A stretch of 64,000 nucleotides of DNA from Candidatus Latescibacterota bacterium (GCA_965208105.1 OZ242318.1:4576001-4640000); one strand, 5' to 3'; positions 1,130 through 35,833 are shown, numbered from the stretch's first letter. Translations and numbers: made by a program. Notes: generated by a model not told the origin, from the letters alone.

Positions 1130-1537
1130 TCAATCGTGGTCCCGGTGCCAGCGCCGCTTCACCCGGTCGAAGCGGCGCGGTCCCATCACCTCCCTGAACC
1201 ACTTTTTGCGCTCCTCCATGCGCTCCCGCTGTTCAGGGGTCAGCAGGGTTCCGAGCTCGGCGTGGACCGAGTCCATCAGAGCCTGCATGGACTGCCGGTG
1301 GCGGCGGTCCAGTTCCCGCAGCCGGGGAGCGGCGCCTCGGAGGACGCGCCTGATTTCCCGGCGCTGGGCGGCGTCGCGGGGCTCGATGAATTTTTCCGTG
1401 AACGCGGCGAAATGGCCCGGGCGCGGGATGGCGCGGAACCGGTGCTGCAGGAACTGCCCGTAGGCCAGGGCTCCCAGGAGCATGCCGATGAGCAGTGTCG
1501 CGACGATAATGGCGGCGCTTTTGGCCTTGGCTTGCAT
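1130..1537 (-). CDS. Periplasmic Spy/CpxP-like (heavy-metal sensor-like) protein
   Basis: N-terminal TM/signal segment, Arg-rich helices and an LTPEQRE motif; third gene of the ECF sigma operon. Confidence 0.65.
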   Translation of the reverse strand: MQAKAKSAAIIVATLLIGMLLGALAYGQFLQHRFRAIPRPGHFAAFTEKFIEPRDAAQRREIRRVLRGAAPRLRELDRRHRQSMQALMDSVHAELGTLLTPEQRERMEERKKWFREVMGPRRFDRVKRRWHRDHD

Positions 1538-1544
1538 AGGTCTC

Positions 1545-1967
1545 TCACATGTCCAGGGCGTAGGTCGTCTCCAGGGTGGTTGGCGGCACGGCGAAAATCA
1601 CTTCCAGTGCGGTGGGTTCGGCCGCCAGGAGCTCCCTGTTGTTCCAGTTGTTCCAGGCTACGAGGGCTGTCAGCACAAGCGCCAGGGGCACCAGGGGCCG
1701 GAACAGCCTAAGAAGCCCGTCGGCGAGGATATCCGGTGCGGTGGCCCTTGACCTGGCCTCGATCCGGCGCATCACGCGGCTGGCGAAGAAGGGCCGGAAG
1801 GATGCGCTCCTGCTGTCCTCGAGCAGCCGCTGCACCTGCTGCATCTGCTCCCATTCCGCGCGCAATTCAGGTTTGCGGGCGAGAAGCTCGGCAAGGCGGA
1901 TTCTCTCTTCCGCGCTCCCTTCGTTCCCCAGAGCGCGCATCAACAACTCGCGGTCACTGTTGTCCAT
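1545..1967 (-). CDS. Putative membrane anti-sigma factor
   Basis: Overlaps the sigma stop codon; short cytoplasmic domain, PFFASRVMRRI motif and one TM helix. Confidence 0.7.
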   Translation of the reverse strand: MDNSDRELLMRALGNEGSAEERIRLAELLARKPELRAEWEQMQQVQRLLEDSRSASFRPFFASRVMRRIEARSRATAPDILADGLLRLFRPLVPLALVLTALVAWNNWNNRELLAAEPTALEVIFAVPPTTLETTYALDM

Positions 1968-2526
1968 AATCCTCCAGGGCGGACCCGAGAAGCCCCTTGA
2001 GCTTCTCCATTCCGCGGTAAAGCCGGGAGAGTACGGTTCCTTCCGGCAGGTTCAGCATGGCCGCGGTCTCCTTGGTGGAATAGCCGTCGATCATGCGCAG
2101 CACCACCACGGCGCGGTGCTCCGGTTTGAGTTCGGCGACCGCCGCCCGCACCCACTCCCCGCGCTCCCGTTTCTCCTCCTCGTCGCGTCCGTCGGCGGCC
2201 GGCGTCGCTCCGGCTTCCTCCTCGTCCAGGCTGCGGAAGCGTCCCCGTGCCCGCTTCCTGCGCTCGAGGGCGTTGAGGGACAGGTTGATGGCAATCCGGG
2301 TGAGATAGGTTCCCACCGCCGACTCGCCGCGGAACCGGTCGAGGGCGCCCCAGAACCGGATGAAGGTTTCCTGTCCCACATCCTCCGCGTCGGCGCCGTT
2401 TCCCAGCATGCCGATGGCGGTAGCCGCCACCAGGGGTTCGTACTTCTCGACCAGGACTCTGAAGGCAGCCTCGTTCCCCTTGCGCGCCTGATCGATGAGC
2501 TTCTGATCCGACCTGCTCTTCTCCAC
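1954..2526 (-). CDS. ECF-family RNA polymerase sigma factor
   Basis: Region 2 DAEDVGQETFIRFW...TYLTRIAIN and region 4 YSTKETAAMLNLPEGTVLSRLYRG. Confidence 0.95.
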   Translation of the reverse strand: MEKSRSDQKLIDQARKGNEAAFRVLVEKYEPLVAATAIGMLGNGADAEDVGQETFIRFWGALDRFRGESAVGTYLTRIAINLSLNALERRKRARGRFRSLDEEEAGATPAADGRDEEEKRERGEWVRAAVAELKPEHRAVVVLRMIDGYSTKETAAMLNLPEGTVLSRLYRGMEKLKGLLGSALEDYGQQ

Positions 2527-2596
2527 TATGATTTGACAGGGTATCGAGGCGTTTCATTCCCCTGGAAAAAAGATTGCACTTTCACTCTTCCCGTTC

Positions 2597-3628
2597 TCAG
2601 GGCACCGGAGACCAGCGCGGAAAGCGCACGCTGGGGGGAAGGTCCGGAACCTGGAAGAGGGCGCCGCTTTCGAGGTCCAGTATGAGAATGTGGGACTGGG
2701 TCAGAAAGGACGGGTCCACTTCCAGGGCTTCGAAAGCGATCATCCTGCCGTCGGGGGACCAGCTGGGATAGGCGGCGGCAGTAAACTGGCTCGACCCGAA
2801 GGTGTGCCGTCTCAGGTCACCGCCCACCGCGTTCATGGTGTAGATCTCGTACTGGTCGAAGTATACCCCTTCCGGGACCGTCTCCAGGTGCCGGGTGGAC
2901 TGGAAGGCGATTCTGTCTCCTGCAGGTGACCAGGACGGGGCTGAATTCCGGGAGTCGTCGCCCCCGACCAGGAGCACCCGGTTTGATCCGTCAGCGTCGA
3001 TCAGGTAGATGTCGGTCCCGTCGTGGCGGTCGCTCTGAAAGGCGATCCTGCTGCCGTCGGGGGACCAGGAGGGAAGCTGGTCCTCCCCCGGGGAACGGGT
3101 CAGGTTGGTCCTCGTGGTATCGTCCAGGGAGATGACGAAGATGTCCCATCCGTTGGCCGCCGAATCCACCCCCTGGTAAGCCATTCGGTCGCCCCCGGGG
3201 GACCAGGCGGGAGCGCGGATAGCCCCGGCGTAATCCAGCACCATGCGGCGCCCTTTGCCCTCCGAGTTCATCAGGTAGAGCCGGTAAACCGGGCTGGACC
3301 CCAGGCTGGTGACGTAGGCGATCCGTCCTCCGTCGGGGGACCAGGAGGGCCACAGGTAGTTGGCCGGATCGTTCGCGTCGTTGAGGGCCACCAGATTCTT
3401 GCCGTCTGGGCGCACGTGGTAGAGGTGGAAGCGGCCGCTTACCGCCCCTTCGACGAAGGCGATCCGGCCCAGCCCGGGGAGGCTGGAAAAGGCCCCCTGC
3501 AGATCTTCGCTGCAGCCGCCGTCACCGCAAAAGGCTGGCCCGGCGATTGGATTGGTGCCGCAGCCGCCCAGCAGAGCTGCGGCGCCAATGGTGCAGAGGA
3601 CTATGGCGGTACGGTTGAAGAGAGGCAC
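2597..3628 (-). CDS. TolB-like beta-propeller (PD40 repeat) lipoprotein
   Basis: Lipobox LGGC and repeated PSWSPDG..IAF motifs. Confidence 0.9.
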   Translation of the reverse strand: MPLFNRTAIVLCTIGAAALLGGCGTNPIAGPAFCGDGGCSEDLQGAFSSLPGLGRIAFVEGAVSGRFHLYHVRPDGKNLVALNDANDPANYLWPSWSPDGGRIAYVTSLGSSPVYRLYLMNSEGKGRRMVLDYAGAIRAPAWSPGGDRMAYQGVDSAANGWDIFVISLDDTTRTNLTRSPGEDQLPSWSPDGSRIAFQSDRHDGTDIYLIDADGSNRVLLVGGDDSRNSAPSWSPAGDRIAFQSTRHLETVPEGVYFDQYEIYTMNAVGGDLRRHTFGSSQFTAAAYPSWSPDGRMIAFEALEVDPSFLTQSHILILDLESGALFQVPDLPPSVRFPRWSPVP

Positions 3629-3992: not shown

Positions 3993-4523
3993 ATGAATCG
4001 GATTAAATTGGCAGTCTCAATTCCAGGAAGGACATTCCCGAAAAATGGTCGCACAGGATTTTCGATTCTCGCCGCCGCCTTGATTTTTCTGGGCTGCTCG
4101 CGCTCCGGCCACCATCCCGACCCCATAGCGCCCGAGATCCCGAGCTCCCCCTACGACATAGAAGCCGGCGCGATAATTTTTTCGAACAGTGCACCCGAAA
4201 ATCTTTCTCAGCGACCGGTCAACAGGAATAAAGATATTTGGATTCATTGGGTGATTTACAACGTTGGGATCGAACCGATTCCCTCGCAGTCGATTTTGTT
4301 GCAAGTGCTCATCGATGGAAAGGTGTCTTCCTACGGCTTTTCGAACCCAACTCCTGTACGACCGGGTAGTTATTTTTCGGCTGGCAGACGCGGGCCTTTT
4401 GCAAGGTACTTTGAAGAAGCGAGGCAGTACGAAATCAAATTGAAGGTTCGCCTACAGAGCCAACTCGGCGAGACCAATCTGGACAACAATGAAATCACCC
4501 GCTTTGTCGATGTGACGGAATGA
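3993..4523 (+). CDS. Array lipoprotein L1 (CARDB/Ig-like domain)
   Basis: RBS AGGAGAGGAG; lipobox FLGC followed by SRSGHHPDPIAP; NVG and GETNLDNNE motifs typical of CARDB-like beta-sandwiches. Confidence 0.8.
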   Translation: MNRIKLAVSIPGRTFPKNGRTGFSILAAALIFLGCSRSGHHPDPIAPEIPSSPYDIEAGAIIFSNSAPENLSQRPVNRNKDIWIHWVIYNVGIEPIPSQSILLQVLIDGKVSSYGFSNPTPVRPGSYFSAGRRGPFARYFEEARQYEIKLKVRLQSQLGETNLDNNEITRFVDVTE

Positions 4524-4589
4524 TGTGGGAGGAGAGGATTCAGCGGTGACAGTTGCTGCACCCACGCTACCAAAGGCTGTTTACTGACG

Positions 4590-5066
4590 ATGTTACATTG
4601 TTCAGTCTGTATTCTTGCAACCTTGCTTTTGGCTGGCTGCTCGCGCTCCGGCCACCATCCCGAACCGATAGCGCCAGAGATCCCGCGCTCCCCCTACGAC
4701 ATAGAAGCCGGCAACATAAGATTTTTGAACGATGAACACATAAAGCGTTCTCAACCACCGGTCAATAGGAATAAAGATATTCGGGTAGCTTGGGAAATTA
4801 ACAACGTAGGGATCGAACCGATTCCCTCCCAGGCGATTTTGTTGACAGTGTTAATCGATGGAAAGGTGTCTTCCTACGGCTTTTCGAACCCTGATCCTGT
4901 ACGTCCTGGTAAAGCCTTTGCCGGTGGCAAACGCGGGGCTTTTGCAAGGTACTTTGAAGAAGCGAGGCAGTACGAAATCAAATTGAAGGTTCGCCTGCCG
5001 AGCAAGCTCGGCGAGACAAATCTGGACAACAATGAATTCACCCGCTTTATCGAGGTGACGGAATAA
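4590..5066 (+). CDS. Array lipoprotein L2 (close paralog of L1)
   Basis: LAGC-SRSGHHPEPIAP...GETNLDNNE; long DNA stretches near-identical to L1. Confidence 0.8.
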   Translation: MLHCSVCILATLLLAGCSRSGHHPEPIAPEIPRSPYDIEAGNIRFLNDEHIKRSQPPVNRNKDIRVAWEINNVGIEPIPSQAILLTVLIDGKVSSYGFSNPDPVRPGKAFAGGKRGAFARYFEEARQYEIKLKVRLPSKLGETNLDNNEFTRFIEVTE

Positions 5067-5109
5067 CGGAGATCGGGCAGGGCCGGTTAATCGTTCTTTT
5101 CCCCACACC

Positions 5110-6492
5110 ATGCCTACTCAATTTCAAAGCCGCAGTCGTCTGTTCAAGTTTATCCTCCTGGCGGGGCTGCTGCACCTGATGCTTATCGTCGCGATTGGGG
5201 TGCGCACGATATATGAGGTCAAAGAGCCCACCATGTCGGGAAAGTTCGTCAAACGCCGGCCGCTGCAGCAGCCGGTATTGCGGCGCCCTCTGCTTCAACC
5301 TTCCCCCGTGCGCCGGCTGGAGCGCATTGTGGAGGCACCCCGCGCTTACTCCAGGGCCGTGGTCCAGCGAGCATTGAGCCCGGTTTCCCCCCGGTTGCTG
5401 TCGAGCCGCCATGTGCTGCCCTCGCTGCTGCCGAGACCCCTGCGACCGTCCGGTAGTTTTCGCGGCAGCGGCCGCCTGCGGTCCTCGGCGGCCGGGATCG
5501 AGATTCGGGCCGAAGACCACATGGACCTGGGTCTGGAACTGTTGGACGTGGACGCCTTCGATACGGGGCGTTATCGCGGCCTGGTGGTGCAGGACCCGAT
5601 GGACAAGCGCAAGCTGCAGGGTTTCGTGCGCTTCTCCGCGGTGGAGATACGTTCCGCCTCGGAGAATACGGCCGATCTCTTCTGGGGTCTGCCCGTTGCC
5701 GCGGCGCGCGCTATCGATCAAGGTGCCGCTTACTTTCCGGATTGGCGCCATTCGGCGAATGTTCGGGCGCTGCACAGCCTGGCGATGGAACTGGAGGCGG
5801 AGACCGAGTTGAGCGCCGTGGTGGACGAGAACGCCACCCTGGACGCACCTGAGGTCCTGTCCAGTCCGTTCATCATGCTGACCAGCATGGTGGAGTTCGA
5901 GCCGACGGAATCCGAAGTCGCCAAGCTGGGTCGTTATCTGACCTCGGGAGGTTTTGCCTACGTGGAGCAGGTGGGCTCGGATGTTCATGGACAGGTGACC
6001 GGGACCTATCCCGAGGTGATTTCCTTGCGTTCCCTGGTGCGCCGGGCACTCGCAACTCAGGGACTGCGAGAAGGTAGCGACTGGAGGTTCGAACCGCTGT
6101 CGCTGGACCATCCGCTTTTTCACAGCTATTTCGACATCCACACCCTGCCTGTCAACTACTGGCAGGCGACCTATGCCGATCGCGAAGGGGTTTCCGAGAA
6201 GCGTGGAGCCTCTCGATACCCTACCGATGAGTATATCCCGCACTATATAGAGGGGATTCACCTGGAAGGCCGGCTGGTGCTGGTGTATTCGCAGCAGAAC
6301 TACCGCGATTTCTGGTCGAAACGCCCGGAGCGGGCGCTGACCGAGTCGTCCCGATACCGGCTGACCGATTTCGTCCGAATGCCCCTCCATCGTCCGAGCA
6401 GCACGCCGGCCATTCGCCTGGGCATCAACGTGGTGGTCTACGCTCTGACCCAGGAAGGCTCCTTGGCTCGGCGCCTGGTCAAGGCGAAGTGA
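5110..6492 (+). CDS. DUF4159-domain protein D1 with N-terminal TM anchor and Pro/Arg-rich linker
   Basis: LGRYLTSGGF, LDHPLFHSYFD, IEGIHLEGRLVLVYS and AIRLGINVVVYALT are DUF4159 hallmarks; TM segment FILLAGLLHLMLIVAIG. Confidence 0.85.
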   Translation: MPTQFQSRSRLFKFILLAGLLHLMLIVAIGVRTIYEVKEPTMSGKFVKRRPLQQPVLRRPLLQPSPVRRLERIVEAPRAYSRAVVQRALSPVSPRLLSSRHVLPSLLPRPLRPSGSFRGSGRLRSSAAGIEIRAEDHMDLGLELLDVDAFDTGRYRGLVVQDPMDKRKLQGFVRFSAVEIRSASENTADLFWGLPVAAARAIDQGAAYFPDWRHSANVRALHSLAMELEAETELSAVVDENATLDAPEVLSSPFIMLTSMVEFEPTESEVAKLGRYLTSGGFAYVEQVGSDVHGQVTGTYPEVISLRSLVRRALATQGLREGSDWRFEPLSLDHPLFHSYFDIHTLPVNYWQATYADREGVSEKRGASRYPTDEYIPHYIEGIHLEGRLVLVYSQQNYRDFWSKRPERALTESSRYRLTDFVRMPLHRPSSTPAIRLGINVVVYALTQEGSLARRLVKAK

Positions 6493-6673
6493 GTTTATTG
6501 AGCACCCATCAATCTCGAACAAACGTTGCTTAGAAATGAAACATATTGGGGTAGCTTTTGAGGGAAAGTCATTGAGCAGAAACCGATCGCCCGATGTATA
6601 CGAAAATCCTTAACCCCTGGTTTCCTTCAGAGCCACCTTGGGAGTAATTTTGAAGATCAGGAAGGAGGCGGCA

Positions 6674-7189
6674 ATGACGAAGTTCTCGCGCGTGGGATTT
6701 TTCATTCTCCTCTTGGCTGGCTGCTCTCGTTCCGGCCACCATCCTGAACCGATCGCTCCCCAGAATACGCGCTCGCCCTATGATGTAGAGGCACACGCGA
6801 TCAGGGTATACAAGACTGGTGTCCAGGGGCAGAAATCAGGACTGAAGGACCCTCAGGTAACGCTAAATATCGCAGATTCGATCGCTGCCCGAGTCCGTAT
6901 TTATTTGCGAAACGTGGGGCAGGCCGTTTTGCCGGAAGGATCTATGCACTACAAGGTCACGATAAATGACACACGGTTTTCAACTGACGGAGGATACGGT
7001 AATTCGACTCCAAAGAAACAAGAAAAATTTTTGATTATAACAATGCCAGTCAAAACTATCCTGCGCACTTACAAGTTGAACAAACCCGGTCGCTACGAGG
7101 TCGTGTTACGGGTTTGGCTTGACGAAGAATTGGGTGAAACAAATCTCGACAACAATGAGTTGATTCACTTCTTCCATGTGGAAGAATAG
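6674..7189 (+). CDS. Array lipoprotein L3
   Basis: RBS AAGGAGG; LAGC-SRSGHHPEPIAP...GETNLDNNE. Confidence 0.8.
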   Translation: MTKFSRVGFFILLLAGCSRSGHHPEPIAPQNTRSPYDVEAHAIRVYKTGVQGQKSGLKDPQVTLNIADSIAARVRIYLRNVGQAVLPEGSMHYKVTINDTRFSTDGGYGNSTPKKQEKFLIITMPVKTILRTYKLNKPGRYEVVLRVWLDEELGETNLDNNELIHFFHVEE

Positions 7190-7292
7190 AGGAGTTCGGG
7201 TTGGACCGGCGGACCACTCCAAGTTTTTTTCAATTGTTTTGATGTTGGAGAGTATTCTTTATGAAGAAAGCGATCGGATTTGAAGGGCTGAG
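7190..7292 (+). repeat. L3-L4 intergenic spacer, duplicated at 8609-8712
   Basis: Near-identical to the L5-L6 spacer (aggag.tcgggtt.gaccgg.ggaccactccaa...ggagagtattctttatgaaga...gatcggatttgaagggctgag). Confidence 0.9.
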
Positions 7293-7823
7293 ATGACAAG
7301 GATCTTACCTGTAGTTTCGGTTACTCTTCTTTTGGTTGGCTGCTCCCGCTCCGGGCATCATCCCGACCCCATAGCGCCGGTTCAGGCCAAGTCGGAGTAT
7401 GATATATGGGCAAAATCGGTTCGGGTGTACAAGGATTCAGCTGACGCCCACACCTACCGACGGGCACTGCCCCCTCAGCGAACTCTTAGTTTGGCAGACT
7501 CGACCTCTGCAATTGTCTATTATAGTATTCAAAACGTGGGGTCGGCCACGTTGCCGATAGGATCCATCCGCCACAGTATCACGATCAATGGCAAGCCGTT
7601 CGTACCTGATGGACACGACAATTTTCAACCAAAACCACCGGGGGGAAGTGCTTCGGGAGGGTACCCAGTCAAAAATTCCAATTTCACTGGACGCAAGTGG
7701 GGACGCAAGTTTAACAAACCCGGCCGCTACGAGGTCCGGCTTCAGGCTTGGCTTGACGAACGCTTTGGTGAAACGAATCTCGACGACAATGTGTTGGTTC
7801 ACTACGTCGATGTGAAAGAATAG
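7293..7823 (+). CDS. Array lipoprotein L4 (most divergent body)
   Basis: LVGC-SRSGHHPDPIAP...NKPGRYEVR...GETNLDDN. Confidence 0.8.
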   Translation: MTRILPVVSVTLLLVGCSRSGHHPDPIAPVQAKSEYDIWAKSVRVYKDSADAHTYRRALPPQRTLSLADSTSAIVYYSIQNVGSATLPIGSIRHSITINGKPFVPDGHDNFQPKPPGGSASGGYPVKNSNFTGRKWGRKFNKPGRYEVRLQAWLDERFGETNLDDNVLVHYVDVKE

Positions 7824-7867
7824 AGGAGATCGGGTAGGACGGGTGAGTCGAGTCTAATCCCCAAACC

Positions 7868-7981
7868 ATGCGTACTCAATTTCACAGCCGCAGTCGTCTG
7901 TTCAAGTTCATCCTCCTGGCGGGGCTGCTGCACCTGCTGCTTGTCGTCGCGATTGGGGTGCGCACGATAGCGGAGGAATAA
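7868..7981 (+). pseudogene. Truncated DUF4159-protein copy encoding only the 37-aa TM anchor
   Basis: MRTQFHSRSRLFKFILLAGLLHLLLVVAIGVRTIAEE*; the first 102 nt are almost identical to the start of D2 (9272), then homology stops abruptly. Confidence 0.8.
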
Positions 7982-8092
7982 CGGCTGTAGGTATACTCGC
8001 CACCATCTGACAATGAGTCGGATAAGCTGGAAGGCCGCATAGAGATTAATACCCTCTCACTCCACTGAAACTGGGCACTTGGGTGGCTTTTA

Positions 8093-8608
8093 ATGACGAA
8101 AATGGCATATGTGGTTTTTGCGCTTTTGGTTTTAATCGGCTGTTCACGTTCCGGCCACCATCCCGACCCGATCGCTCCCCAGAATACGCGCTCGCCCTAT
8201 GATATAGAGGCACACGCGATCAGGGTATACCAGACTGGGGTCCAGAGGCAGAAATCAGGACTGAAGGACCCTCAGGTAACGCTTAATATCGCAGATTCGA
8301 TCTCTGCCCAGGTCGGTATTTGGATGCGGAACGTGGGGCAGGCCGTTTTGCCGGAAGGCTCTATGCACTTCAAGGTCACGATAAATGACACACGGTTCTC
8401 AACTGACGGAGGATACGGTAATCCGGATCCAAGAAAGCCGGGGAAGTTTGAAATCTGGTTCCTTCCAGTCAAAACTATCCTGCGCACTTACAAGTTGAAC
8501 AAACCCGGTCGCTACGAGGTCGTGTTTCGGGTTTGGCTTGACGAAAAATTTGGTGAAACGAATCTCGACAACAATGAGTTGATTCACTTCTTCCATGTGG
8601 AAGAGTAG
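8093..8608 (+). CDS. Array lipoprotein L5 (close paralog of L3 and L6)
   Basis: LIGC-SRSGHHPDPIAPQNTRSPYD...GETNLDNNE. Confidence 0.8.
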   Translation: MTKMAYVVFALLVLIGCSRSGHHPDPIAPQNTRSPYDIEAHAIRVYQTGVQRQKSGLKDPQVTLNIADSISAQVGIWMRNVGQAVLPEGSMHFKVTINDTRFSTDGGYGNPDPRKPGKFEIWFLPVKTILRTYKLNKPGRYEVVFRVWLDEKFGETNLDNNELIHFFHVEE

Positions 8609-8712
8609 AGGAGATCGGGTTTGACCGGTGGACCACTCCAAATTTTTTTCAAATTGTTATGATGCTGGAGAGTATTCTTTATGAAGATGGGGATCGGATT
8701 TGAAGGGCTGAG
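8609..8712 (+). repeat. L5-L6 intergenic spacer, duplicate of 7190-7292
   Basis: Direct sequence comparison. Confidence 0.9.
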
Positions 8713-9228
8713 ATGACAAGGATCTTACCTGTAGTTTCGGTTACTCTTCTTTTGGTTGGCTGCTCCCGCTCCGGCCACCATCCTGAACCGATAGCTCCCC
8801 AGAATACGCGCTCGCCCTATGATATAGAGGCCCACGCCGTTAGGGTATACAAGACTGGGGTCCAAGGGCAGAAATCAGGACTGAAGGACCCTCAGGTAAC
8901 GCTTAATGTTGCAGATTCGATCGCTGCCCGGGTCGGTATTTGGATGCGGAACGTGGGGCAGGTCATTTTGCCGGAAGGATCTATGCACTACAAGGTCACG
9001 ATCAATGACAAGCGGCTCTCAACTGACGGAGGATACGGTAATTCGGCTCCAAAGAATCCGGGAAAGTTTCAAATCTACTACATTCCAGTCAAAACTATCC
9101 TGCGCACTTACAAGTTGAATAAACCCGGTCGCTACGAGGTCGTGTTTCGGGTTTGGCTTGACGAAGAATTTGGTGAAACGAATCTCGACAACAATGAGTT
9201 GATTCACTACTTCGATGTGGAAGAATAG
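8713..9228 (+). CDS. Array lipoprotein L6 (L4 signal peptide on an L3/L5-type body)
   Basis: MTRILPVVSVTLLLVGC is identical to L4; the mature domain is near-identical to L3/L5. Confidence 0.8.
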   Translation: MTRILPVVSVTLLLVGCSRSGHHPEPIAPQNTRSPYDIEAHAVRVYKTGVQGQKSGLKDPQVTLNVADSIAARVGIWMRNVGQVILPEGSMHYKVTINDKRLSTDGGYGNSAPKNPGKFQIYYIPVKTILRTYKLNKPGRYEVVFRVWLDEEFGETNLDNNELIHYFDVEE

Positions 9229-9271
9229 CGGAGATGGGGTTGGACCGGTGAATCGGTCTTTTCCCCACGCC

Positions 9272-10654
9272 ATGCGTACTCAATTTCACAGCCGCAGTCG
9301 TCTGTTCAAGTTCATCCTCCTGGCGGGGCTGCTGCACCTGCTGCTTATCGTCGCGATTGGGGTGCGCACGATATATGATGTCAAAGAGCCCACCATGTCG
9401 GGAAAGTTTGTCAAACGCCGGCCGCTGCAGCAGCCGGTTTTGCGGCGCCCTCTGCTTCAACCTTCCCCCGAGCGCCGGCTGGAGCGCATTGTGGAGGCGC
9501 CCCGCGCTTACTCCAGGGCCGTGGTCCAGCGAGCATTGAGCCCGGTTTCCCCCCGGTTGCTGTCGAGCCGCCATGTGCTGCCCTCGCTTCCTCCCAGACC
9601 CCTGCGACCGTCCGGCAGTTTTCGCGGCAGCGGCCGCCTGCGGTCCACGGCGGCCGGGATCGAGATTCAGGCGGAGGACCACATGGACCTGGGTCTGGAA
9701 CTGCTGGACGTGGACGCCTTCGATACGGGGCGTTATCGCGCCCTGGTGGTGCAGGACCCCATGGACAAGCGCAAGCTGCAGGGTTTCGTGCGCTTCACCG
9801 CGGTGGAGATCCGTTCCGCCTCGGAGAATCTGGCGGATCTCTTTTGGGGCATGCCCATAGCCGCGGCACGCAGTATCGATCGAGGTAGCGTGTACTGGCC
9901 GGATTGGCGCCATTCGGCGAATGTTCGGGCGCTGCACAGCCTGGCGATGGAGTTGGAGGCGGAGACCGGGTTGAGCGCCGTGGTGGACGAGAACATCACA
10001 CTGGACGCTCCGGAGGTGCTGACCAGTCCATTCATTATGCTGACCAGCCTTGTGGAATTCGAGCCGACGGAAACCGAGGTCGCCAAGCTGGGGCGCTATC
10101 TGACCTCGGGTGGTTTTGCCTACGTGGAGCAGGTTGGCTCGGACTCCCATGGACGGCAGAGCGGGACCTTTCCGGAGATCATTTCCTTGCGTTCCCTGGT
10201 GCGCCGTGCCCTGGCCTCCCAAGGGCTGGGCGAAGGCGGCGACTGGAGCTTCGAACCGCTGTCGATGGACCATCCCCTCTTCCACTGTTACTATGACATC
10301 GACACCCTGCCCCTCAACTTTTGGCAAGCGACTTACGTCGACCGGGAGGGGCAAACCGAGCGGTATGGCCAAAGTCGATATCCCACGGACGAGTACATCC
10401 CTCGCTATATCGAGGGAATTCACCTGAACGGCAGGCTGGTGCTGGTGTATTCGCAGCAGAACTATCGCGATTTCTGGTCGAAACGTCCGGAGCGAACGCT
10501 GACCGAGGCGTCAGAACACTTTCTGGCCAATTGGAATCAGGTGCCCTTCCATCGACCGAGCAGCATTCCGGCGATCCGCCTCGGCATCAACGTGATGGTC
10601 TACGCTCTGACCCAGGAAGGCTCCTTGGCCAGGCACCTGGTCATGGGGAGGTGA
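9272..10654 (+). CDS. DUF4159-domain protein D2 (paralog of D1)
   Basis: Same architecture and length (460 aa) as D1; start assigned by homology. Confidence 0.85.
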   Translation: MRTQFHSRSRLFKFILLAGLLHLLLIVAIGVRTIYDVKEPTMSGKFVKRRPLQQPVLRRPLLQPSPERRLERIVEAPRAYSRAVVQRALSPVSPRLLSSRHVLPSLPPRPLRPSGSFRGSGRLRSTAAGIEIQAEDHMDLGLELLDVDAFDTGRYRALVVQDPMDKRKLQGFVRFTAVEIRSASENLADLFWGMPIAAARSIDRGSVYWPDWRHSANVRALHSLAMELEAETGLSAVVDENITLDAPEVLTSPFIMLTSLVEFEPTETEVAKLGRYLTSGGFAYVEQVGSDSHGRQSGTFPEIISLRSLVRRALASQGLGEGGDWSFEPLSMDHPLFHCYYDIDTLPLNFWQATYVDREGQTERYGQSRYPTDEYIPRYIEGIHLNGRLVLVYSQQNYRDFWSKRPERTLTEASEHFLANWNQVPFHRPSSIPAIRLGINVMVYALTQEGSLARHLVMGR

Positions 10655-10701
10655 GCTATCAGCCCGGGTGGCAGGCTATTTCTCAATGGGTGTGCTTTGA
10701 G

Positions 10702-12423
10702 ATGAGAAGTAGATTTTCGGGTTCGTATATCTCGAGCAGATCAAGCTATGGAATTTTTCTCGTTGCGGCCTCGGTTTCCTTTTTGTTGGCCCAACCCTCA
10801 CTCGCGCAAGAATGGCTGAGTGAGGGAGAGGAAGGGTTTCTCCCTGGCAAGCTCGACGGACTGGAGATAACCAACGATGGGGATCTTCGCCTGACATCCT
10901 TCGAGGGGGTCAACTTCGCCCTGGGGATCGACACCTATTCCAATGGTACGGCCCTGGGGGCCGCGCTCACCGACGGAAACCTCGCCACCGAGTGGGATTT
11001 CGACGAGGATCCAAAGGTAGTCGGCAAGACCATCGACATCGATCTGGGCGGCAACCGGCTCGTCAACCAGGTGCGCATCTTGCCCGGCTCCGGGGCCGGT
11101 GCCGATAACCCGGAGTATTTCGTCAAAGGATACCGGGTCGAGATGGCCCCTGAAGAGGCGCCTGATGCGTTCGGTGTGGTGGCGGACAACCATGTCAATC
11201 GAGTCCCCCTGGTAGATACGAGCGCCGACGGTACCTGGCTGCGCTACGAAGACGGTGCTCCGGTTGCCACACTGGGAAGATACCTCCGGGTCACCATCAC
11301 ACGGCAGGATCTGCCCAATTGGGTGATCATCGGCGAGGTGGAAGTGTTCGGCACCGGGTTTCATGCCCGCGGCCAGTACTTGTCGGCCCTTCACGACTTC
11401 GGTGAACGGGTCAACGTTGGCGCCGGGTTTTTCCAAGCCGAGACCCCGCCTGGAACCCGGATGCACTTGCAGTTTCGAGCCGGTGTTGACCAGGACTACC
11501 TGCCGAGGTGGGATGATTTTCCCTTTTACGGCGTGGATGAGGGCAAGCGGGGTGTCTTTTTCCCTGTCCGCGATCCCTCCCGGTACATCCAGTACCGAGC
11601 CCTGCTGGAGACGGAGAATCCGTTCATCTCACCTGAGCTTAGCGAGGTGCGGGTGCAGTTCGACCCCCGGCTCGTTGCCCGGTCAGCCACCGGCAGAATC
11701 GATCCGCGTGAAGTGCCTGTGGGAGAGCCGGTGAGTCTCACCTACACTGCCGAGATTTATCTGGGCTCGGAGAACTACCCTCTGGACCTTTTGATCCTGG
11801 ACCGGCCTGGGAAGCTGGAAGAGATCTCCATGAGGTTGGCTGTGGTTCCTCCTGAGAAATACAGGACGCTGACGCCGCATGGTTCGCTGCAGGAAGACAA
11901 TCTGATCATCCAGCTCGACCCCGATCTCATCCGTTCAAGCGTCAGACAATTGGAAATTGTTTTCACCACCGTCTTCTTCATGGGCACCGAGGAAGTGAAT
12001 TTGTTCCTCGGGTCTTCGCTAGAAGGTTCCGACCCTGAAAACCTGCAGAAGGTCGCACCGCGGATAAAGGACGGCACGTTAGTGACCGTACTGGGTGCAG
12101 TCGACGAGCTTGTGCCTTCCGCCAGCGTGGCGATCCGGCCGCGGGTGTTCAGGCCGGACCGCGGCGGCGCTACGCGCATCGAGTTCGATCTGACCAAGGT
12201 ACTCGTGCCGGTGCCCGTGACGGTTACCATTCACGAGTTGTCCGGCCGCCGGGTTAGCACCGTGGTCGATCGCGAGATGTTGGCAGCTGGTGAGATCTCC
12301 ATCTCCTGGGACGGCTTCGACGACCACCGCGGGGTTCTCGCACCAGGGATCTACATGTGCAGGATCCGGGTCCACGCCCAGGAATCCGCGACCCTCGTTC
12401 GTTTCCTGGGCATCGCCTATTGA
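10702..12423 (+). CDS. Secreted protein with a discoidin/F5-8-like domain and a C-terminal FlgD Ig-like domain
   Basis: Signal peptide ending SLA-Q; ALTDGNLATEW...IDIDLGG...GRYLRVTI...IGEVEVFG (discoidin-like); C-terminal IHELSGRRV...ISWDGFDDHRGVLAPGIYMCRI (FlgD-Ig). Start uncertain. Confidence 0.75.
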   Translation: MRSRFSGSYISSRSSYGIFLVAASVSFLLAQPSLAQEWLSEGEEGFLPGKLDGLEITNDGDLRLTSFEGVNFALGIDTYSNGTALGAALTDGNLATEWDFDEDPKVVGKTIDIDLGGNRLVNQVRILPGSGAGADNPEYFVKGYRVEMAPEEAPDAFGVVADNHVNRVPLVDTSADGTWLRYEDGAPVATLGRYLRVTITRQDLPNWVIIGEVEVFGTGFHARGQYLSALHDFGERVNVGAGFFQAETPPGTRMHLQFRAGVDQDYLPRWDDFPFYGVDEGKRGVFFPVRDPSRYIQYRALLETENPFISPELSEVRVQFDPRLVARSATGRIDPREVPVGEPVSLTYTAEIYLGSENYPLDLLILDRPGKLEEISMRLAVVPPEKYRTLTPHGSLQEDNLIIQLDPDLIRSSVRQLEIVFTTVFFMGTEEVNLFLGSSLEGSDPENLQKVAPRIKDGTLVTVLGAVDELVPSASVAIRPRVFRPDRGGATRIEFDLTKVLVPVPVTVTIHELSGRRVSTVVDREMLAAGEISISWDGFDDHRGVLAPGIYMCRIRVHAQESATLVRFLGIAY

Positions 12424-12436
12424 CGCGAGGCGCAAT

Positions 12437-15067
12437 GTGAAACGGGTTGTTCTACCCTTGTTGCTCTTCGGCTTGTCCGCCGGTGCTTTCGCCTCGGAGA
12501 AAGACTATGGTGTTTTACTCCAGCGACCCGCGATGAAAGCCTACCGCAACTACGCCGAATACTCCTACCGGAATTACCGCTCCGCTCTCCGCGTAAACCC
12601 GCGCTACAGCTTTCTGGGCGATTTTCTTGCCGAAGGATTTCGCGCTTTCAGACTCGACGACCAGCGTCCCGGCAGGAGTCTCCTCTCCAAGGACGGGGTC
12701 TACCGGGGCATGTTCGGAAACCTGCTCATTGCGCGCAACTCCTACGGGCGCCTCAACCTGGCCCTGACCGTCGGCGACGATGTGCGCACCCACCTGACCC
12801 CCCTGACCATGCAGCGGGCCAGTTTCAATGGTCTGCGCTGGGAGATCGAGTTCGCCAACAACCGGGTAACCCTGCTCAGCACTCGCGGCTACGACAACTC
12901 GGAGTTTCCGGCTTTCCCCAGCTTTTCTACTCCCATCGATGACAATTTCACCGACTTCCGGGGAGATCTGGAGCAGGAGTTCATTATCGAGGAAGACGAT
13001 CCGGTCTACACTTTCGGGGGCCACTGGGAAACCCAGGCGGGGGACGTGCTGACCCTGGGGATGACCTTTCTCAACCAGCAGCAGATCAACACCGGGGCGC
13101 TGCGCCAGGACAGCTTTGTGGCCGGCAGCGTGCCCTATCCCGAGATGTTGTCGCCTGAGAAACTGATGCTGCGCATCACCGACGACTCCCCCGGCAGTAG
13201 GGACCATGGCGCCACCATATTTACCGCCTTTCTGGAAATGGAGGGGAGCGTGGGTGGAGAGAACACCACGATCAGCAGCGATCCTCGCAGCCCCCATTTC
13301 GACGAATCGCTGCAGCCAAAGACGGAAGGGGTGGTGAAGGAGAATGGAAGGTGGGACATTCGCGGCGACGAGGAACTTATAATTACTTTCGAGCTGCCGG
13401 AAGGCAGCACCTCCAGGCGCGCCCGCTTCATCGTGTCCGCGGCCAACGACTATCGCATCGCCGCGGCGCAGGAGCACATATTCTATCTGGACTTAAGCTC
13501 GCGCACGACTCCCTTCATGACCCTGCGCCGCGCCTCAGGCGAGGTGAGCGACGGCTCCAACTTCCGGGAGCTGGTGATCGACTACGGTCTCAACAGCGGC
13601 CAGATCCTCTACGGTATGGACTTCGCCGCCGACCTGGCGGGCCTCAAGCTGCGCGGCGAGGTGTCGAAAAACACCCTCTACCGCAAGTACCCGATCATAT
13701 CCGGCCGCAGCCTGCGCCGCGATACCGGGGCCTGGTACCTGCAGGCGGTAAGGACCTTTCCGCGCCTGCGCCGGCTTTCCCTGGGCGCCGAGTTCTTCCA
13801 CGTCGGCCCGCGCTACGGCGGCGGCTACGACAGCCGCCGCGGCGGTGTGGTGCTCTACACGGATTTTGGCGGGGAGGGCATCGATCCTGTAACGGCCGAG
13901 TTTCCCCTGGTGGACGACAACGACGACAACGACCGCTACTCCGACGACAACAAAAACGATTTTCCCGGGTCCTTCGACCTGGAGTCGGGGGTCTACCCGG
14001 GGCTCGACGAAGACAACGACAACATCCCCGACGACGACCGCAACGCCAACGGCATTCCCGATTTCGAGGAGCCCTTTCTGCTCTACCATTCCGACCCCCA
14101 GGAGTTCGTCTATGGCCTGGATTTGAACAACAACGGGGTCATCGACGTGCGCGAGAACGACAACAAGCCCGACTATCCCTACGACCGCGACCGCCGCGGC
14201 CGCCACTACACCGTGGCCGCGCAGCCTTTGCCGCAGCTGGAGGTGGGGGCGGGTCACTACCGCATCCGCGCGTTGGCCGACCCCGGGCGCACCGTCTCCA
14301 CCTACCTGCGCGCCGCCTACTCTTACGCCCACCCCGAGAAGCTGGAGATCGAGCTCAACCACGACTCCAAGCGGGTCAGGGACACTATTCCCGATTCGGT
14401 CTACGTCTTCGATCCGGCCCGCATCGTGACGCCCCTGGAACCGCCGGACCCCGATCCCCTGCTGCAACAGAACAGTTGGGTGCACACCTCCTTTGCCGGG
14501 GTGCGCTGGAGCCGCTGGGCGCCGCTCTACCTGGAGGCCAATTTCAAACAGGTCCTCAACCGCCTGTTCGACCTGGGCCACACGCGGGTGTCGGAGCGCG
14601 ACCGCCGGGTGACCCGGACCATGGTCAACAAGGTGGACTACCGGATGGAGTGGGGCCGCTTCACGGTGATGCCCATGTACAAGCGCCTGTGGCGCCGGGT
14701 GGATCTGGACTCCCGGGAGGGTGCGGCGGTGTGGGAGGTGCAGTCGGCGCCGATGCTGCGGGTGGACTACCGGGTGAGCGGAGACATGAAGGTGCAGATG
14801 GGCCAGCAGGGGCTGCGGCTTCCCTTTGCGGGCATGGACCGTGTGCTGGCGTTTCACCTGGACGACCAGGTGCGGCGCTATCGCAGCTACACCTCCACCG
14901 ACTTCATGTTCATGCTCACGTTGAAGGGCAGCTACCTGGGCAACGTGCTGACGACCAACTCGGGGATTCAACTGCACAGCCGCCGGTTCGACCAGATCGG
15001 GGCGGGGTCGGATCTCAAGTTCACCCGCTTCTTCGTGGAAGTGGTGGCCGGATTCGAGCATTTCTGA
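12437..15067 (+). CDS. Large exported protein, putative outer-membrane beta-barrel with Dx[DN]xDG/TSP3-like Ca-binding loops (paralog A)
   Basis: Signal peptide AFA-S; DDNDDNDRYSD, DEDNDNIPDDDRNANGIPDF and DLNNNGVID motifs; amphipathic strands; C-terminal FTRFFVEVVAGFEHF ending in Phe. Confidence 0.65.
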   Translation: MKRVVLPLLLFGLSAGAFASEKDYGVLLQRPAMKAYRNYAEYSYRNYRSALRVNPRYSFLGDFLAEGFRAFRLDDQRPGRSLLSKDGVYRGMFGNLLIARNSYGRLNLALTVGDDVRTHLTPLTMQRASFNGLRWEIEFANNRVTLLSTRGYDNSEFPAFPSFSTPIDDNFTDFRGDLEQEFIIEEDDPVYTFGGHWETQAGDVLTLGMTFLNQQQINTGALRQDSFVAGSVPYPEMLSPEKLMLRITDDSPGSRDHGATIFTAFLEMEGSVGGENTTISSDPRSPHFDESLQPKTEGVVKENGRWDIRGDEELIITFELPEGSTSRRARFIVSAANDYRIAAAQEHIFYLDLSSRTTPFMTLRRASGEVSDGSNFRELVIDYGLNSGQILYGMDFAADLAGLKLRGEVSKNTLYRKYPIISGRSLRRDTGAWYLQAVRTFPRLRRLSLGAEFFHVGPRYGGGYDSRRGGVVLYTDFGGEGIDPVTAEFPLVDDNDDNDRYSDDNKNDFPGSFDLESGVYPGLDEDNDNIPDDDRNANGIPDFEEPFLLYHSDPQEFVYGLDLNNNGVIDVRENDNKPDYPYDRDRRGRHYTVAAQPLPQLEVGAGHYRIRALADPGRTVSTYLRAAYSYAHPEKLEIELNHDSKRVRDTIPDSVYVFDPARIVTPLEPPDPDPLLQQNSWVHTSFAGVRWSRWAPLYLEANFKQVLNRLFDLGHTRVSERDRRVTRTMVNKVDYRMEWGRFTVMPMYKRLWRRVDLDSREGAAVWEVQSAPMLRVDYRVSGDMKVQMGQQGLRLPFAGMDRVLAFHLDDQVRRYRSYTSTDFMFMLTLKGSYLGNVLTTNSGIQLHSRRFDQIGAGSDLKFTRFFVEVVAGFEHF

Positions 15068-15082
15068 GCGGAGCGTTCTTCC

Positions 15083-18000
15083 ATGACTCTCATAGCCATG
15101 TTTTCGGTTTTCCTGGTAACCGTCGGGGTCAGCCTCCTGGAGGACTCGCCGCGGGAGCTGGGCAACCGCTTCAAGCGCGCCCAAAAATTAATGGTGATGG
15201 GGGACTTCGACACTTCCATCGCCGCCTACGAGCAGCTCATGGAGACCCCCGGCTCGGCCCTGCTGCGAGCGGACCGGGTGGAGGTAGAGGTGGGTGAGGA
15301 GGTGCTGCCCCTCAAGGTGGCCGCCGCCTACCAGGTGGCCAGCAGCTACCGCCGCCGGGCAGAGGAGCAGTTGCAGGTCTACCGGGACAGCGCCGTTGTG
15401 CCCCGGTTCGAGGACCTGCACACCGCGGCCCGTTTCTACCGGATCCTGGCGGACGAGGAGAGCACCCCTGAAACTCTGCGCCAGCGGGCCGCTTTTCAGG
15501 TGGGCAGTTGCTATTTCAAGAACCAGGATTACGTCGAGGCCATAGCCGCATTCGACTGGTTCGTCCAGGCGTTTCCTTCCAGCGAGTACCGTCTCCAGGC
15601 GAGCTACCACACCGCCTGGGCCCTCTTCCACACCGAGCAATGGGAACGGGCGGGGGCGGAGTTTCGCGCCGTGGCCTCCCAGGTCCCAGGCACCGACCGG
15701 GGTCTCAGGTCCCTGTTCCAGTCGGGAGAAGCCGAGGAAAGAATGGGTCGTTTCGAGCGCTCGGTGCGGGCTTTTGAGGAGATCGCCGCCTTTTACGACG
15801 AGGGCGAGTACGGAGCGGGCCTCCGCCGCGACGAGCTCATGCGCGCCCTGCGCGAAAAGCTCCCGGTCACTCGCCGCGAGCTCATCGGCAAGGGGCACAT
15901 GCGCACCGGGGACGCCTATCGCCATCTCGACTCCCTCGCCGCCGCTGCGCACTGGTACCGGCTGACCGCGCGCCGATTTCCCACCGACGCGCAACTGCTC
16001 AAGGACGCCTATCTGCGCCTGGCCGAGATGGATGCCGACGCCGGGCGCGTGGACGAGGCCCTGGCGGCCTACCGCACCGCCCTGGAGGAGGTGATGGATC
16101 CATTCTTCCGCGCCCTGGTCCAGGCCGAGATGATGGCTCTGGCCTTCGCATCGGAGCGCTATCTCGAAGCCGCGCAGATGTATGGATTCTACATAGATGC
16201 CTTCGGCTCCTATGCCGAAGAGGTAGGCGTTCCCGTCGACCGGGCACGACTGCTCAAGGCGGAGTCCCTGCGCCTCGCCGCCCAGGATACGGCAGACCCG
16301 GCCTCCTCCGACTCCCTCCACGCACGCTCTCTTGAAGTCTATCACGGCCTGTTGCAGAGCACCCGGGTGGACAGCCTGGCGGCAGAGGCGTTGCTGGGTG
16401 CCGGAATCTGCCTGCAAAGTCTCGACCGTCCCGGCGCCGCGCGAGAGCACTACGAGAGGCTCACCGGCGAATACGGCGCAACCCGGGTGGCCATGTGGGG
16501 AAGGCTGCACCTGGCGCGCCTCTATGCCGAGGAAGGAGCCAGGGCCAAGGCGCTGCGCCACTACGAGGACCTGGCGGCCGGCGGCGACGGGGAGCTGCGC
16601 GACCTCGCTCGCATGGAGCTGGCCGTGCTTCTGGAGGGGGAGGGGCAGAGCGACCGGGCCTTGGAGCTGCTTTCCCGGATAGGGCCCGAGTCCGCGGAGT
16701 TCGGCCGCGCTCAGATGGTATTGGCCCGCCTGCTCACTGTCCGCGAGCGTTGGGCCGAGGCGCGCCGGGTGGTCCACCACGCCCTCGACCGGGCCGTGGA
16801 CCCGTCGGTCCGGGCCCAGTTGAGCTACTCCCGTGCCGAAATCGCCTTCGAGGCAGCCCAGTACGACTCGGTAATCCGCATCCTGGCCGCATTGGATACC
16901 ACCCGGCTGCAGCAGCCTTTTGACCACGACCGCCTCTACCTGCGCGGCGTCGCGCGCTACCAGACCGGAGCATACGCCCGGGCATTGGACGACCTTCGCG
17001 CCTACCTTGCCGGTGATGCGGCGCTGCGGGCGCAGACCATTCAGACCATCGCCCTGTGCCTGGGGCAACTGCTGGAGGCGGAGCAGGCCGCGGAGCAACT
17101 GGTCCGGTGGGGCGCCGAGGCGACGGACCCCGGTGAGGGCGGCGAATGGACCATGGGCCTGGCGCGGTTTCTCCACCGCCGGAAAGACTACGACCGCGCC
17201 CTCGAGGTGCTGCAGGGGCTGGATAGCGAAAACGACCTCCAGGCCCACCGCGCCCGCCTCGTGGAGGGCGAAATTCTGCTGGCGCAGCAACGCTGGGACG
17301 CCGCTCGCACGGTCCTGGCGCAGATCCAACCCGACCCCCTCTCGCCCGGCGACCGCTCGCACCGCCTCTACCTGATGGGGATCGCCGCCATGAACGGGGA
17401 GGACTACGAGGGGGCGGTTTTCAGCTTTCAGGCCTTGCTGGCGCTCCGCACTCAGGGCGATCTTTCCCGCCAGGCCGCCCTCTACCTTGGCCAGAGTTAC
17501 TACACCCTGGGAAAGTACCCCCGCGCCGCTGCGGTCTTCGAGGATCTTGCGGAGCGCTTTCCTGCTCACCCGGACGGCCACGAAGCGGCCTACCTGGCCG
17601 GGGACAACTATTACCTGCTCGGGGACTACGAGCGGGCATCCCGGGCCTACCAGAGAGTACTTCTGGGCCCGCGCCTTCCCGAGGCTATGCTCGCCCTGGC
17701 CTGGTGCCATCTGCACAGAGAGGACGCCGCGGCCATGGAGCAGGCCCTGAAACTCCTGCAGGAGCGCTTCCCCCAAAGTCCTCTGGCCCCTCGGGCGGCC
17801 ATGATGTTCGCCGATTACCACTACAACCGCGCAGACTACAAGCGCGCCAGCCAGGCCTACGAGAGCCTGAGGCGGCGCTATCCCCAAAGCCCGGAAGCCG
17901 GGCGCTCGTCGCGGCTGCTGGTGGATCTGGCCGACCTGGAAGCCGATCGCCTCTACCAGGAGGCCATGGCCGCCTTCGACGGCGGCGACTACGAGGGCGC

Positions 18001-18223: not shown

Positions 18224-18250
18224 CCCGCCGATCAGGCGAGGAGATACTTC

Positions 18251-20481: not shown

Positions 20482-20492
20482 GTCGGGAAGCA

Positions 20493-31653: not shown

Positions 31654-31793
31654 GGTAACTTCATTTATCACCAGTAAGGCGGCGCAATTTTACCCTGATG
31701 AAGGCCGATAGCCATGTTCCGACTGGGGATGTTTCCGATCGCGGCCTCGACGCCCCGGCCTCCAGGCACGCCGTGAAGGTGAAAAGGAAGAAT

Positions 31794-35665: not shown

Positions 35666-35726
35666 GAGAGGTGTCATGCGTTGGCCGGCGTACGCACCGG
35701 CTAGTGATCGGGCCGAGTCCCAATTC

Positions 35727-35828: not shown

Positions 35829-35833
35829 GAAAC

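Follow-up and report, generated by a model that had tools for sequence, protein, structure and literature searches.

What kind of system is encoded by an array in which small lipoprotein genes stand in tandem with genes for DUF4159 proteins, and how did these lipoproteins come to share both ends of their mature chains while differing in their bodies? We addressed this question for a locus at positions 3993-10654 of a 64,000-nucleotide (nt) stretch of the genome of a Candidatus Latescibacterota bacterium (GCA_965208105.1 OZ242318.1:4576001-4640000), hereafter the window. A preliminary description had seen there a triplicated unit of two lipoprotein genes and one DUF4159 gene, forming an expanding and contracting, cassette-like locus that supplies a repertoire of surface binders. 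Here we observed that genes of the lipoprotein family (L) and of the DUF4159 family (D) are repeatedly co-located, and that the array has been shaped by duplication, truncation and recombination at the codons of a lipid-proximal tether. We lean, with a confidence only a little above even, towards reading the array as a conserved envelope module of lipoproteins and DUF4159 proteins, in which duplication and gene conversion diversify the lipoprotein heads.

Results

Layout of the array

The order L1-L2-D1, L3-L4-relic, L5-L6-D2 given in the preliminary description was borne out by the list of open reading frames (ORFs) and by the sequence. The nine features (L1-L6, D1, D2 and a relic of a D gene) all lie on the + strand. 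The relic is real, but starts at 7868 and not at 7869 as first given.

3993-4523, + strand: L1, lipoprotein with a type A body; 34 residues precede the Cys, an unusually long signal peptide (ORF)
4590-5066, + strand: L2, lipoprotein with a type A body; D1 starts 43 nt downstream (ORF)
5110-6492, + strand: D1, DUF4159 gene encoding an N-terminal membrane helix, a linker and the domain (Pfam PF13709)
6674-7189, + strand: L3, lipoprotein with a type B body (ORF, alignment, tree)
7190-7292, + strand: L3-L4 spacer with a hairpin, T7 and then an AT-rich stretch; counterpart of 8609-8712
7293-7823, + strand: L4, lipoprotein with a type C body; 5' flank, signal peptide and 3' end of the L6/L5 kind
7868-7981, + strand: D relic, 37 codons (N terminus and membrane helix) plus stop
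7982-8092, strand not assigned: junction between relic and L5, unique in the window (blastn-short)
8093-8608, + strand: L5, lipoprotein with a type B body (ORF, alignment)
8609-8712, + strand: L5-L6 spacer with a hairpin and then T7; counterpart of 7190-7292
8713-9228, + strand: L6, recombinant lipoprotein with an L4-type 5' end and a type B body (maximum chi-square)
9272-10654, + strand: D2, second full-length DUF4159 gene (Pfam)

In a six-frame scan of the whole window, CSRSGHH and GETNLD each occurred six times, every match inside the L1-L6 ORFs. The ATG of L1 at 3993 is preceded by an AGGAG-rich ribosome-binding site, and the same Met is found in the relatives P0010, P0012 and P0013; the ATG of L3 at 6674 has a strong GGAGG site upstream. 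As noted in the preliminary description, the L genes are more AT-rich than the D genes; they are also more AT-rich than the window as a whole. Their GC content is 0.48-0.52, versus 0.62 for D1/D2 and 0.61 for the window, and their GC at third codon positions (GC3) is 0.55-0.60, versus 0.75-0.77 for D1/D2.

The L3-L4 and L5-L6 spacers are 88-100% identical. The hairpin of the former has a folding energy of -11.6 kcal/mol (z versus shuffled sequences -0.41; L5-L6 counterpart, z -0.28), and a terminator scan flagged nothing 3' of L3 or L5. Because the hairpins fold about as well as shuffled sequences and the scan was negative, a terminator here is a visual impression given by hairpin and T7. The hairpin and T7 follow L3 and L5 at 7190-7236 and 8609-8655 (+ strand), and a GGAG-N-TCGGG..GGACC sequence is conserved after the stop codon in five of the six L genes. 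Searched by blastn-short, the junction at 7982-8092 is unique in the window but for one chance hit of 12 nt.

A lipoprotein family with a conserved tether

The L proteins are 158-176 residues long and consist of a type II signal peptide, a near-invariant mature N terminus and one divergent CARDB-type immunoglobulin (Ig)-like β-sandwich. The mature N terminus, here called the tether, reads Cys-SRSGHHP[DE]PIAP and runs on to ..S-x-Y-D-x-x-A, and the body ends in the CARDB signature E-T-N-x-D-N-N. When the six proteins were aligned, the shared motifs reported earlier proved to be invariant columns, namely the lipobox Cys, SRSGHHP, PIAP and GETNLD..N. Lipoproteins were recognised by a hydrophobic signal peptide ending in a lipobox [LVI]-[ASTVI]-[GAS]-C. 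By eye, all six L proteins carry a lipobox, F-L-G-C (that of L1), L-A-G-C, L-V-G-C or L-I-G-C, leading directly into the invariant Cys. L1-L6 are thus predicted lipoproteins with lipidation at this residue. In some distant family members, lipobox position -1 is H, Y or C, and the tether of distant members takes the form C-S-R-[AK]-G-E-N-P-L-P-x-E-P.

The tether is the most conserved and family-specific segment. Over 47 full-length members (fragments and N-terminally truncated rows excluded), the mean frequency of the top residue was 0.72 for the tether including the Cys, 0.61 for the C terminus, 0.44 for the signal peptide and 0.38 for the body. The tether codons of L3, L5 and L6 differ at a proportion of 0.20-0.33 of synonymous sites (pS) and 0-0.02 of nonsynonymous sites (pN), so that the constraint acts on the peptide.

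Compared with L1, L2 is 73% identical in protein sequence, and the values for L3-L6 are 35-38%. In a 33-row tree, the three body types proposed earlier were recovered as clades with high Shimodaira-Hasegawa-like approximate likelihood ratio support: type A with L1, L2 and relatives (7 rows, support 100), type B with L3, L5, L6 and two relatives (99), and type C with L4 and P0005, which is 97% identical to L4 (100). In type B, variable strand positions 73-78 and 120-124 are rich in aromatic residues.

No L protein of the window passed any Pfam or NCBIfam cut-off. L1 and L2 gave sub-threshold CARDB matches (expectation value, E, 0.064 and 0.052) that cover nearly the whole model; for L3-L6, Pfam reported no CARDB match with the E limit relaxed to 10. 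An AlphaFold2 model of L5 from a 17-row alignment is a β-sandwich with a predicted local distance difference test (pLDDT) value of 75.7. Its top Foldseek matches in the PDB were structures of the CARDB domain of PF1109, 2kl6 (E 2.5e-5) and 3idu. The template modelling (TM) score against 2kl6 was 0.69 when normalised to the target, and against 2kl6/3idu it was 0.42-0.46 when normalised to the query, the latter being low because the model includes signal peptide and tether. Aligned by hhalign to 10 Pfam-verified CARDB domains, which came from proteins already matching the L profile, the 26-row L profile gave a probability of 98.3% (E 2.1e-14, 93 columns). This alignment pairs GETNLDNN with the C-terminal E-x-N-E-x-N-N motif of CARDB; the motif, although conserved in all six proteins as described earlier, is therefore a generic CARDB hallmark and not specific to the array. 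A PDB sequence search with the L profile returned two chance-level matches only (E 0.75 and 1.5).

The L family is rare. A search with L5 as query returned 14 proteins, and one of 5.8 billion clusters with the 26-row profile returned 42. Against 1.84 billion representatives, the L profile found 43 proteins at E up to 1e-3. A Pfam scan of 25 of these identified 12 as genuine CARDB proteins and 10 as short lipoproteins that belong to the L family and lack a Pfam match; the other three are unrelated. One of these three, P0016 (2178 residues; 30 matching stretches, E 6.7e-53), is built from perfect tandem copies of a 71-residue unit, has no relation to the L family and was dropped. The L proteins thus form a previously unnamed, narrowly distributed family of lipoproteins with a single CARDB-like domain and an invariant tether.

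Duplications that built the array

Self-comparison by BLAST revealed repeats of 81.5-90.6% identity, beyond chance. L1 and L2 are 85.6% identical over 444 nt, and L5 and L6 are 90.6% identical over 501 nt. The block L3-L4-relic (6719-7969) matches L5-L6-D2 (8138-9373) at 81.5% over 1264 nt, and the first unit matches the third (5010-6493 versus 9172-10655) at 86.9% over 1484 nt. The first unit shares with the third only the block from the L2 CARDB motif through D1. L3-L4-relic and L5-L6-D2 are therefore one segmental duplicate, and of the proposed triplication this duplication stands, but not the three equal copies.

Sliding comparison of the segmental duplicate showed an identity of 0.92-0.97 for L3/L5 over most of their length and 0.88-1.0 for the inter-L spacer and the L4/L6 5' ends. 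It falls to 0.37-0.72 in the L4/L6 bodies (60-nt windows) and returns to 0.85-1.0 at the L4/L6 3' ends and the D 5' end. The 5' region of L4 (7221-7378) is 91% identical to 8641-8798.

Synonymous (dS) and nonsynonymous (dN) distances, calculated by the method of Nei and Gojobori, separate the events in depth. For L1-L2, dS was 0.26 with a dN/dS of 0.73. It was 0.24-0.33 among L3, L5 and L6, 0.40-0.62 between L4 and type B, and 1.8 or more, or not computable (beyond synonymous saturation), between type A and the rest. Given this saturation and a dS of 0.29 for D1-D2, the apparent triplication is an old L paralogy with younger duplications superimposed. The history of the array very probably began with a deep paralogy of body types A, B and C. 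Local duplications giving L1/L2 and D1/D2 (dS about 0.26-0.29) would have followed, and then a segmental duplication of an L-L-D(5') block that placed L3-L4-relic beside L5-L6-D2. Patchwise recombination or gene conversion, with the tether codons as junction, would finally have set different bodies behind one 5' end.

Recombination at the tether junction

All 24 informative sites in the first 63 nt of the L6 coding sequence agree with L4; nt 63 lies inside the tether codons, and L6 is L5-like downstream of it. With L4 and L5 as parents, the maximum chi-square at this breakpoint was 91.4, a value reached in 0 of 500 permutations. Among L3, L5 and L6, the same test was weak or negative, the score being reached in 22 and 397 of 500 permutations. 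Along these three genes, pS runs from 0.07 (codons 127-171) to 0.61-0.76 (signal peptide), within an overall range of 0.07-0.76.

Exchange was also seen among relatives. Signal peptide and body were discordant in 16 of the 120 pairs formed by 16 family members: eight pairs have signal peptides at least 80% identical and bodies below 60%, and eight others show the reverse. For example, L3 and P0017 share 16 of 16 signal peptide residues with bodies only 27% identical, P0003 and P0006 are 88% and 36% identical in signal peptide and body, and L3 and P0002 are 44% and 98% identical, respectively. These sequence data, together with the L6 breakpoint, support the cassette-like swapping of bodies behind position-specific 5' ends. 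All six L copies are full-length, with their own start codon, signal peptide and lipobox.

The DUF4159 proteins and the relic

D1 and D2 match DUF4159 with 65.2 and 63.0 bits (cut-off 25.9). They are 86% identical as proteins (dN/dS 0.31). An AlphaFold2 model of D1 from a 46-row alignment (pLDDT 74.2) has a helix at residues 4-35, a Pro/Arg-rich, disordered linker of about 110 residues (about 36-144) without confident structure (pLDDT <50 for 64-144), and a folded domain at about 145-450. The only strong match of this domain was 4i66 (Hoch_4089; Foldseek E 3.9e-12, sequence profile E 3.7e-13), with a TM-score of 0.71 normalised to the target. On the strength of its structure, DUF4159 is assigned by Pfam to the class I glutamine amidotransferase-like clan (PMC4702930). 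The D domain has no invariant Cys or His column among 46 aligned sequences, and an amidotransferase-type triad is therefore unlikely. In a full-text literature search on DUF4159, the Pfam paper (PMC4702930) was the only one to name the domain.

Within the membrane helix of D, Ala18 and His22 are at least 90% conserved (46 sequences), and a conserved L-S-G-K-F-V-K-R-R-P motif follows it. The charges flanking the helix favour a topology with the N terminus inside and the C terminus outside. The D clade is distinguished from DUF4159 proteins in general by its own conserved N-terminal helix and the juxtamembrane K-F-V-K-R-R-P motif.

Over 102 nt, the relic matches the 5' end of D2 at 101 positions and that of D1 at 97. 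Its homology to D stops after nt 102, where unique sequence begins. The ORF encodes an intact 37-residue peptide that keeps the membrane helix, Ala18 and His22, and it is preceded by a 44-nt spacer of the D2 type, so that a small membrane peptide could be made, judging from the sequence.

Co-location of L and D genes in relatives

The D subfamily comprised 51 proteins at E up to 1e-10 among 8000 candidates scored. One D homologue is named as a Candidatus Latescibacterota protein from a metagenome-assembled genome, the nearest Atlas clusters are mostly Latescibacterota, and the L family probably belongs to this lineage as well. Searches of genome contigs confirmed none of 92 pattern matches to a 17-row L alignment and none of 18 pattern matches to D1. 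Co-location was therefore read from a proxy, equal contig nt totals recorded for the matches, drawing on all 45 hits of the L family and, of the 51 in the D subfamily, on 28 (P0055-P0082). By this proxy, L and D occur together on nine contigs.

2,503-nt contig: one D, one L
9,594-nt contig: at least one D, one L
13,980-nt contig: two D, one L
15,263-nt contig: four D, two L
25,222-nt contig: one D, three L
342,083-nt contig: one D, one L fragment
5,317,192-nt contig: three D, five L
5,734,604-nt contig: two D, one L
5,870,491-nt contig: three D, one L

Five of the nine shared contigs are short (2,503-25,222 nt), and L and D are therefore close together there. Eight D-bearing contigs had no L match. 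The window's own genome scores as carrying L only, because its D genes were clustered under representatives from other contigs.

In a 36-row D tree, subtypes of the L tether follow the D clades: the CSRSGHHP tether pairs with D clade i, CSR[AS]GENPLP with clade iii and CSPEGENSAP with clade iv. D1 and D2 are sisters with respect to other genomes (support 99), and the 15,263-nt contig carries four D copies, three of which group in a clade of their own (support 98). The number of D copies per contig ranges from one to four. L and D have stayed together while identity fell to about 55% in D and 30% in L, which makes the module old, and it has been amplified repeatedly. Expansion and contraction, as first suggested, are thus seen in the D copy cut to 37 codons, the D1/D2 sister pair, the lineage-specific D clade and the range of D copy numbers, and the array is not fixed and identical across relatives, whose contigs differ in copy number.

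Two distant members of the L family, P0127 and P0128 (26% identical to L2), are recorded on the same 4,846,116-nt contig as the window's proteins and lie outside the window. Both have a C-[AS]-R-[KQ]-G-[EK]-N-P-L-P tether and a non-canonical residue at lipobox position -1. The pair probably points to a second L/D locus elsewhere in this genome.

Discussion

On the reading we prefer, the array is part of an envelope module in which the constant tether would be the recognised part of the lipoprotein, serving for sorting or for docking to a partner. D would be its most likely docking partner, because the tether subtypes track the D clades. A complex prediction from alignments, run without controls, for D1 residues 140-460 with mature L2 (18-158) scored 0.09 against a mark of 0.32, a result that speaks neither for nor against binding. 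The variable β-sandwich, as modelled, may act as a diversifying binding head. The module's probable site of action is the cell envelope, where it would work with the products of downstream genes described below, a discoidin-domain protein, a large outer-membrane protein, a tetratricopeptide repeat (TPR) protein and ExbB/ExbD. Since all six L copies look expressible, they would constitute a standing set of paralogues and not a switch between expressed and silent cassettes.

Several observations weigh against this reading. By the contig proxy, which is indirect and has false negatives, 25 of the 34 L-bearing contigs had no D match. L1 and L2 reached 13.9 and 14.2 bits with CARDB PF07705 and so missed its cut-off of 22.7 bits. 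The dN/dS between paralogues is below 1 overall (0.29-0.96). In the variable patch at codons 106-126 of L3, L5 and L6, pS climbs together with pN, and the patch therefore speaks for segment exchange and not for proven positive selection. For the surface exposure and ligand binding that the L proteins may have, the modelled Ig-like CARDB fold is the sole argument, just as the flanking charges are for the compartment of the DUF4159 domain. CARDB domains of this type and DUF4159 alike lack a demonstrated function.

The array could instead be a by-product of ordinary birth and death of tandem paralogues by unequal crossing-over between similar genes, in which the copies have no repertoire function, are redundant and are in part being lost. 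The truncated D copy, a dN/dS below 1 in every pair, unique and unrelated junction sequences and the failure to find switching machinery all fit such a process. We nevertheless consider it unlikely, given that six L genes have stayed intact despite a type A/B divergence beyond synonymous saturation, that deep body types are retained in relatives, and that L and D are each found in multiple copies in several divergent lineages. Programmed antigenic or phase variation from one expression site and silent donors, as in vls, vsp and pilS, is highly improbable. The variable bodies do lie between conserved 5' and 3' ends, and a recombination junction in the conserved 5' part and segmental gene conversion were found, but none of the six complete genes lacks a start codon or signal peptide, as a silent copy would. 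Eleven weak inverted-repeat pairs (15-26 nt, 73-93% complementary) were detected, none of which brackets a gene start, and a Pfam scan of 55 window ORFs revealed no recombinase. Programmed switching or an invertible element at the L array is thus not supported.

By analogy to interbacterial defence clusters, the L proteins might instead be periplasmic or lipoprotein immunity proteins against the envelope toxins of competitors, accumulated and shuffled like orphan immunity genes. Tandem small, variable, secreted β-sandwich proteins, a GC content below that of neighbouring genes and mosaicism between strains would suit this idea, which we judge very unlikely: no toxin, Rhs, type VI secretion or integrase gene was recognised by Pfam among the 55 window ORFs, a scan that novel toxin families could escape, and PADLOC gave no match in the 10 proteins scanned. 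Moreover, one invariant tether whose subtypes track D clades fits a housekeeping partner better than diverse foreign toxins. That the array is an assembly artefact, with strain variants from a mixed sample joined in series, is barely credible. Near-identical single-L variants do occur on short metagenome contigs (P0002, P0005 and P0012, at 93-97%), but DNA divergence between the copies is 9-19% and their junctions are unique; assembly software would neither merge such copies nor string them together. The contig recorded for the window's proteins is 4,846,116 nt long, and other large contigs also carry multiple D copies.

TonB and TolA are transducers with a single N-terminal helix, which carries an S-H-L-S motif, a long linker and a C-terminal globular domain. 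D may resemble them, in that it has a single N-terminal helix with a near-invariant His, a long proline-rich linker and a C-terminal globular domain. It differs in that the C-terminal domain is recognised by Pfam only as DUF4159 and not as TonB_C, and the Ser positions of S-H-L-S are unmatched. The possible likeness lies in this layout and in the neighbouring ExbB/ExbD genes. D could conceivably be a TonB-like, ExbB/ExbD-energised trans-envelope arm that has DUF4159 in place of the TonB C-domain and docks onto the invariant tether of outer-membrane CARDB lipoproteins, though we regard this as quite unlikely. The L heads would then be interchangeable adaptors that set what is gripped or imported, and tethers and D clades would co-diversify through contact.

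Tandem paralogous lipoproteins that diversify by gene conversion are familiar from the vsp/vlp/vls loci of Borrelia and the vlp/vsp loci of Mycoplasma. The L array resembles these loci in its small lipoproteins with conserved ends and variable bodies and in segmental exchange between copies. Unlike them, it has no architecture of expression site and silent cassettes, its signal peptides are variable and its mature tether is constant, and it is linked to a conserved gene for a membrane protein and occurs in an environmental lineage rather than in a host-associated pathogen. With CARDB (PF07705; PF1109 of Pyrococcus furiosus, 2kl6/3idu) the L proteins share the Ig-like β-sandwich, N-V-G in the second strand and the C-terminal E-x-N-x-x-N-N. 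Most of the CARDB proteins found here are large, multi-domain and secreted, whereas each L protein is a lipoprotein with one domain and a conserved lipid-proximal tether.

The nearest conceptual parallel that we encountered in print is provided by the VARTIG modules of Thermococcales, variable loci around CARDB-like Ig-domain proteins that have been read as conflict or recognition systems (PMC8416519). These archaeal modules consist of a large multi-Ig protein with variable genes downstream of it and, unlike the L array, have no lipoprotein tether, a DUF4159 partner or tandem small paralogues (PMC8416519). A full-text literature search returned, in the extracts it gave, nothing relevant on CARDB lipoproteins or Latescibacteria lipoproteins.

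With the L family, DUF4159, a widespread domain without a known role, gains its first conserved genetic partner in this lineage. The locus is also a clean natural case of modular recombination, with the lipid-proximal tether as junction and Ig-like heads exchanged behind it. If the tether is a docking or sorting signal, it would open a new way to approach the targeting of lipoproteins in a phylum that is known chiefly through metagenomes; if it is not, the locus is an ordinary but well-documented paralogue array. Should D work in the manner of TonB, a new class of energised outer-membrane system would be present in Latescibacterota and relatives.

Neighbouring genes and base composition

The array is followed by co-oriented genes, which may belong to the same system.

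10687-19750, + strand: genes for an F5/8-type-C plus FlgD_ig protein, an 885-residue protein, a 1046-residue TPR protein, ExbB and two ExbD (Pfam, NCBIfam)

The 885-residue protein (12410-15067) matches no Pfam family and ends in Phe. In the Atlas, it falls among unnamed Gemmatimonadota/Latescibacterota clusters, and it is likely an outer-membrane barrel. The ExbB gene and two ExbD genes at 18251-19750 (+ strand) are co-oriented with the array and lie 8-9 kb downstream of it; Pfam recognised no TonB_C or TolA gene in the window. After the ExbD genes come, in the same orientation, a lipoprotein gene and a second copy of the 885-residue gene split in two overlapping ORFs (20478-21794 and 21721-23145, + strand) by a frameshift or sequencing error. 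Both copies have Asp-rich repeats of the D-x-D-x-D type and a Phe at the end. Further along, 26577-28823 and 31698-33857 (+ strand) encode two large paralogues with CBM9-like and DUF5916 domains. Upstream of the array, the divergent stretch 1130-3628 (- strand) encodes a TolB-like PD40 β-propeller lipoprotein, an extracytoplasmic function (ECF) sigma factor, an anti-sigma factor and a small unnamed protein.

The L genes are not singled out by low GC alone, because the genome is compositionally patchy. Genes at 25884-26534, 33971-38819, 56287-58196 and 61203-63525 have a GC3 of 0.44-0.65, versus 0.72-0.93 in their neighbours. Pfam matches in these regions include two APH-type phosphotransferases, GNAT acetyltransferases, and HEAT, ankyrin, HAD, NUDIX and methyltransferase domains.

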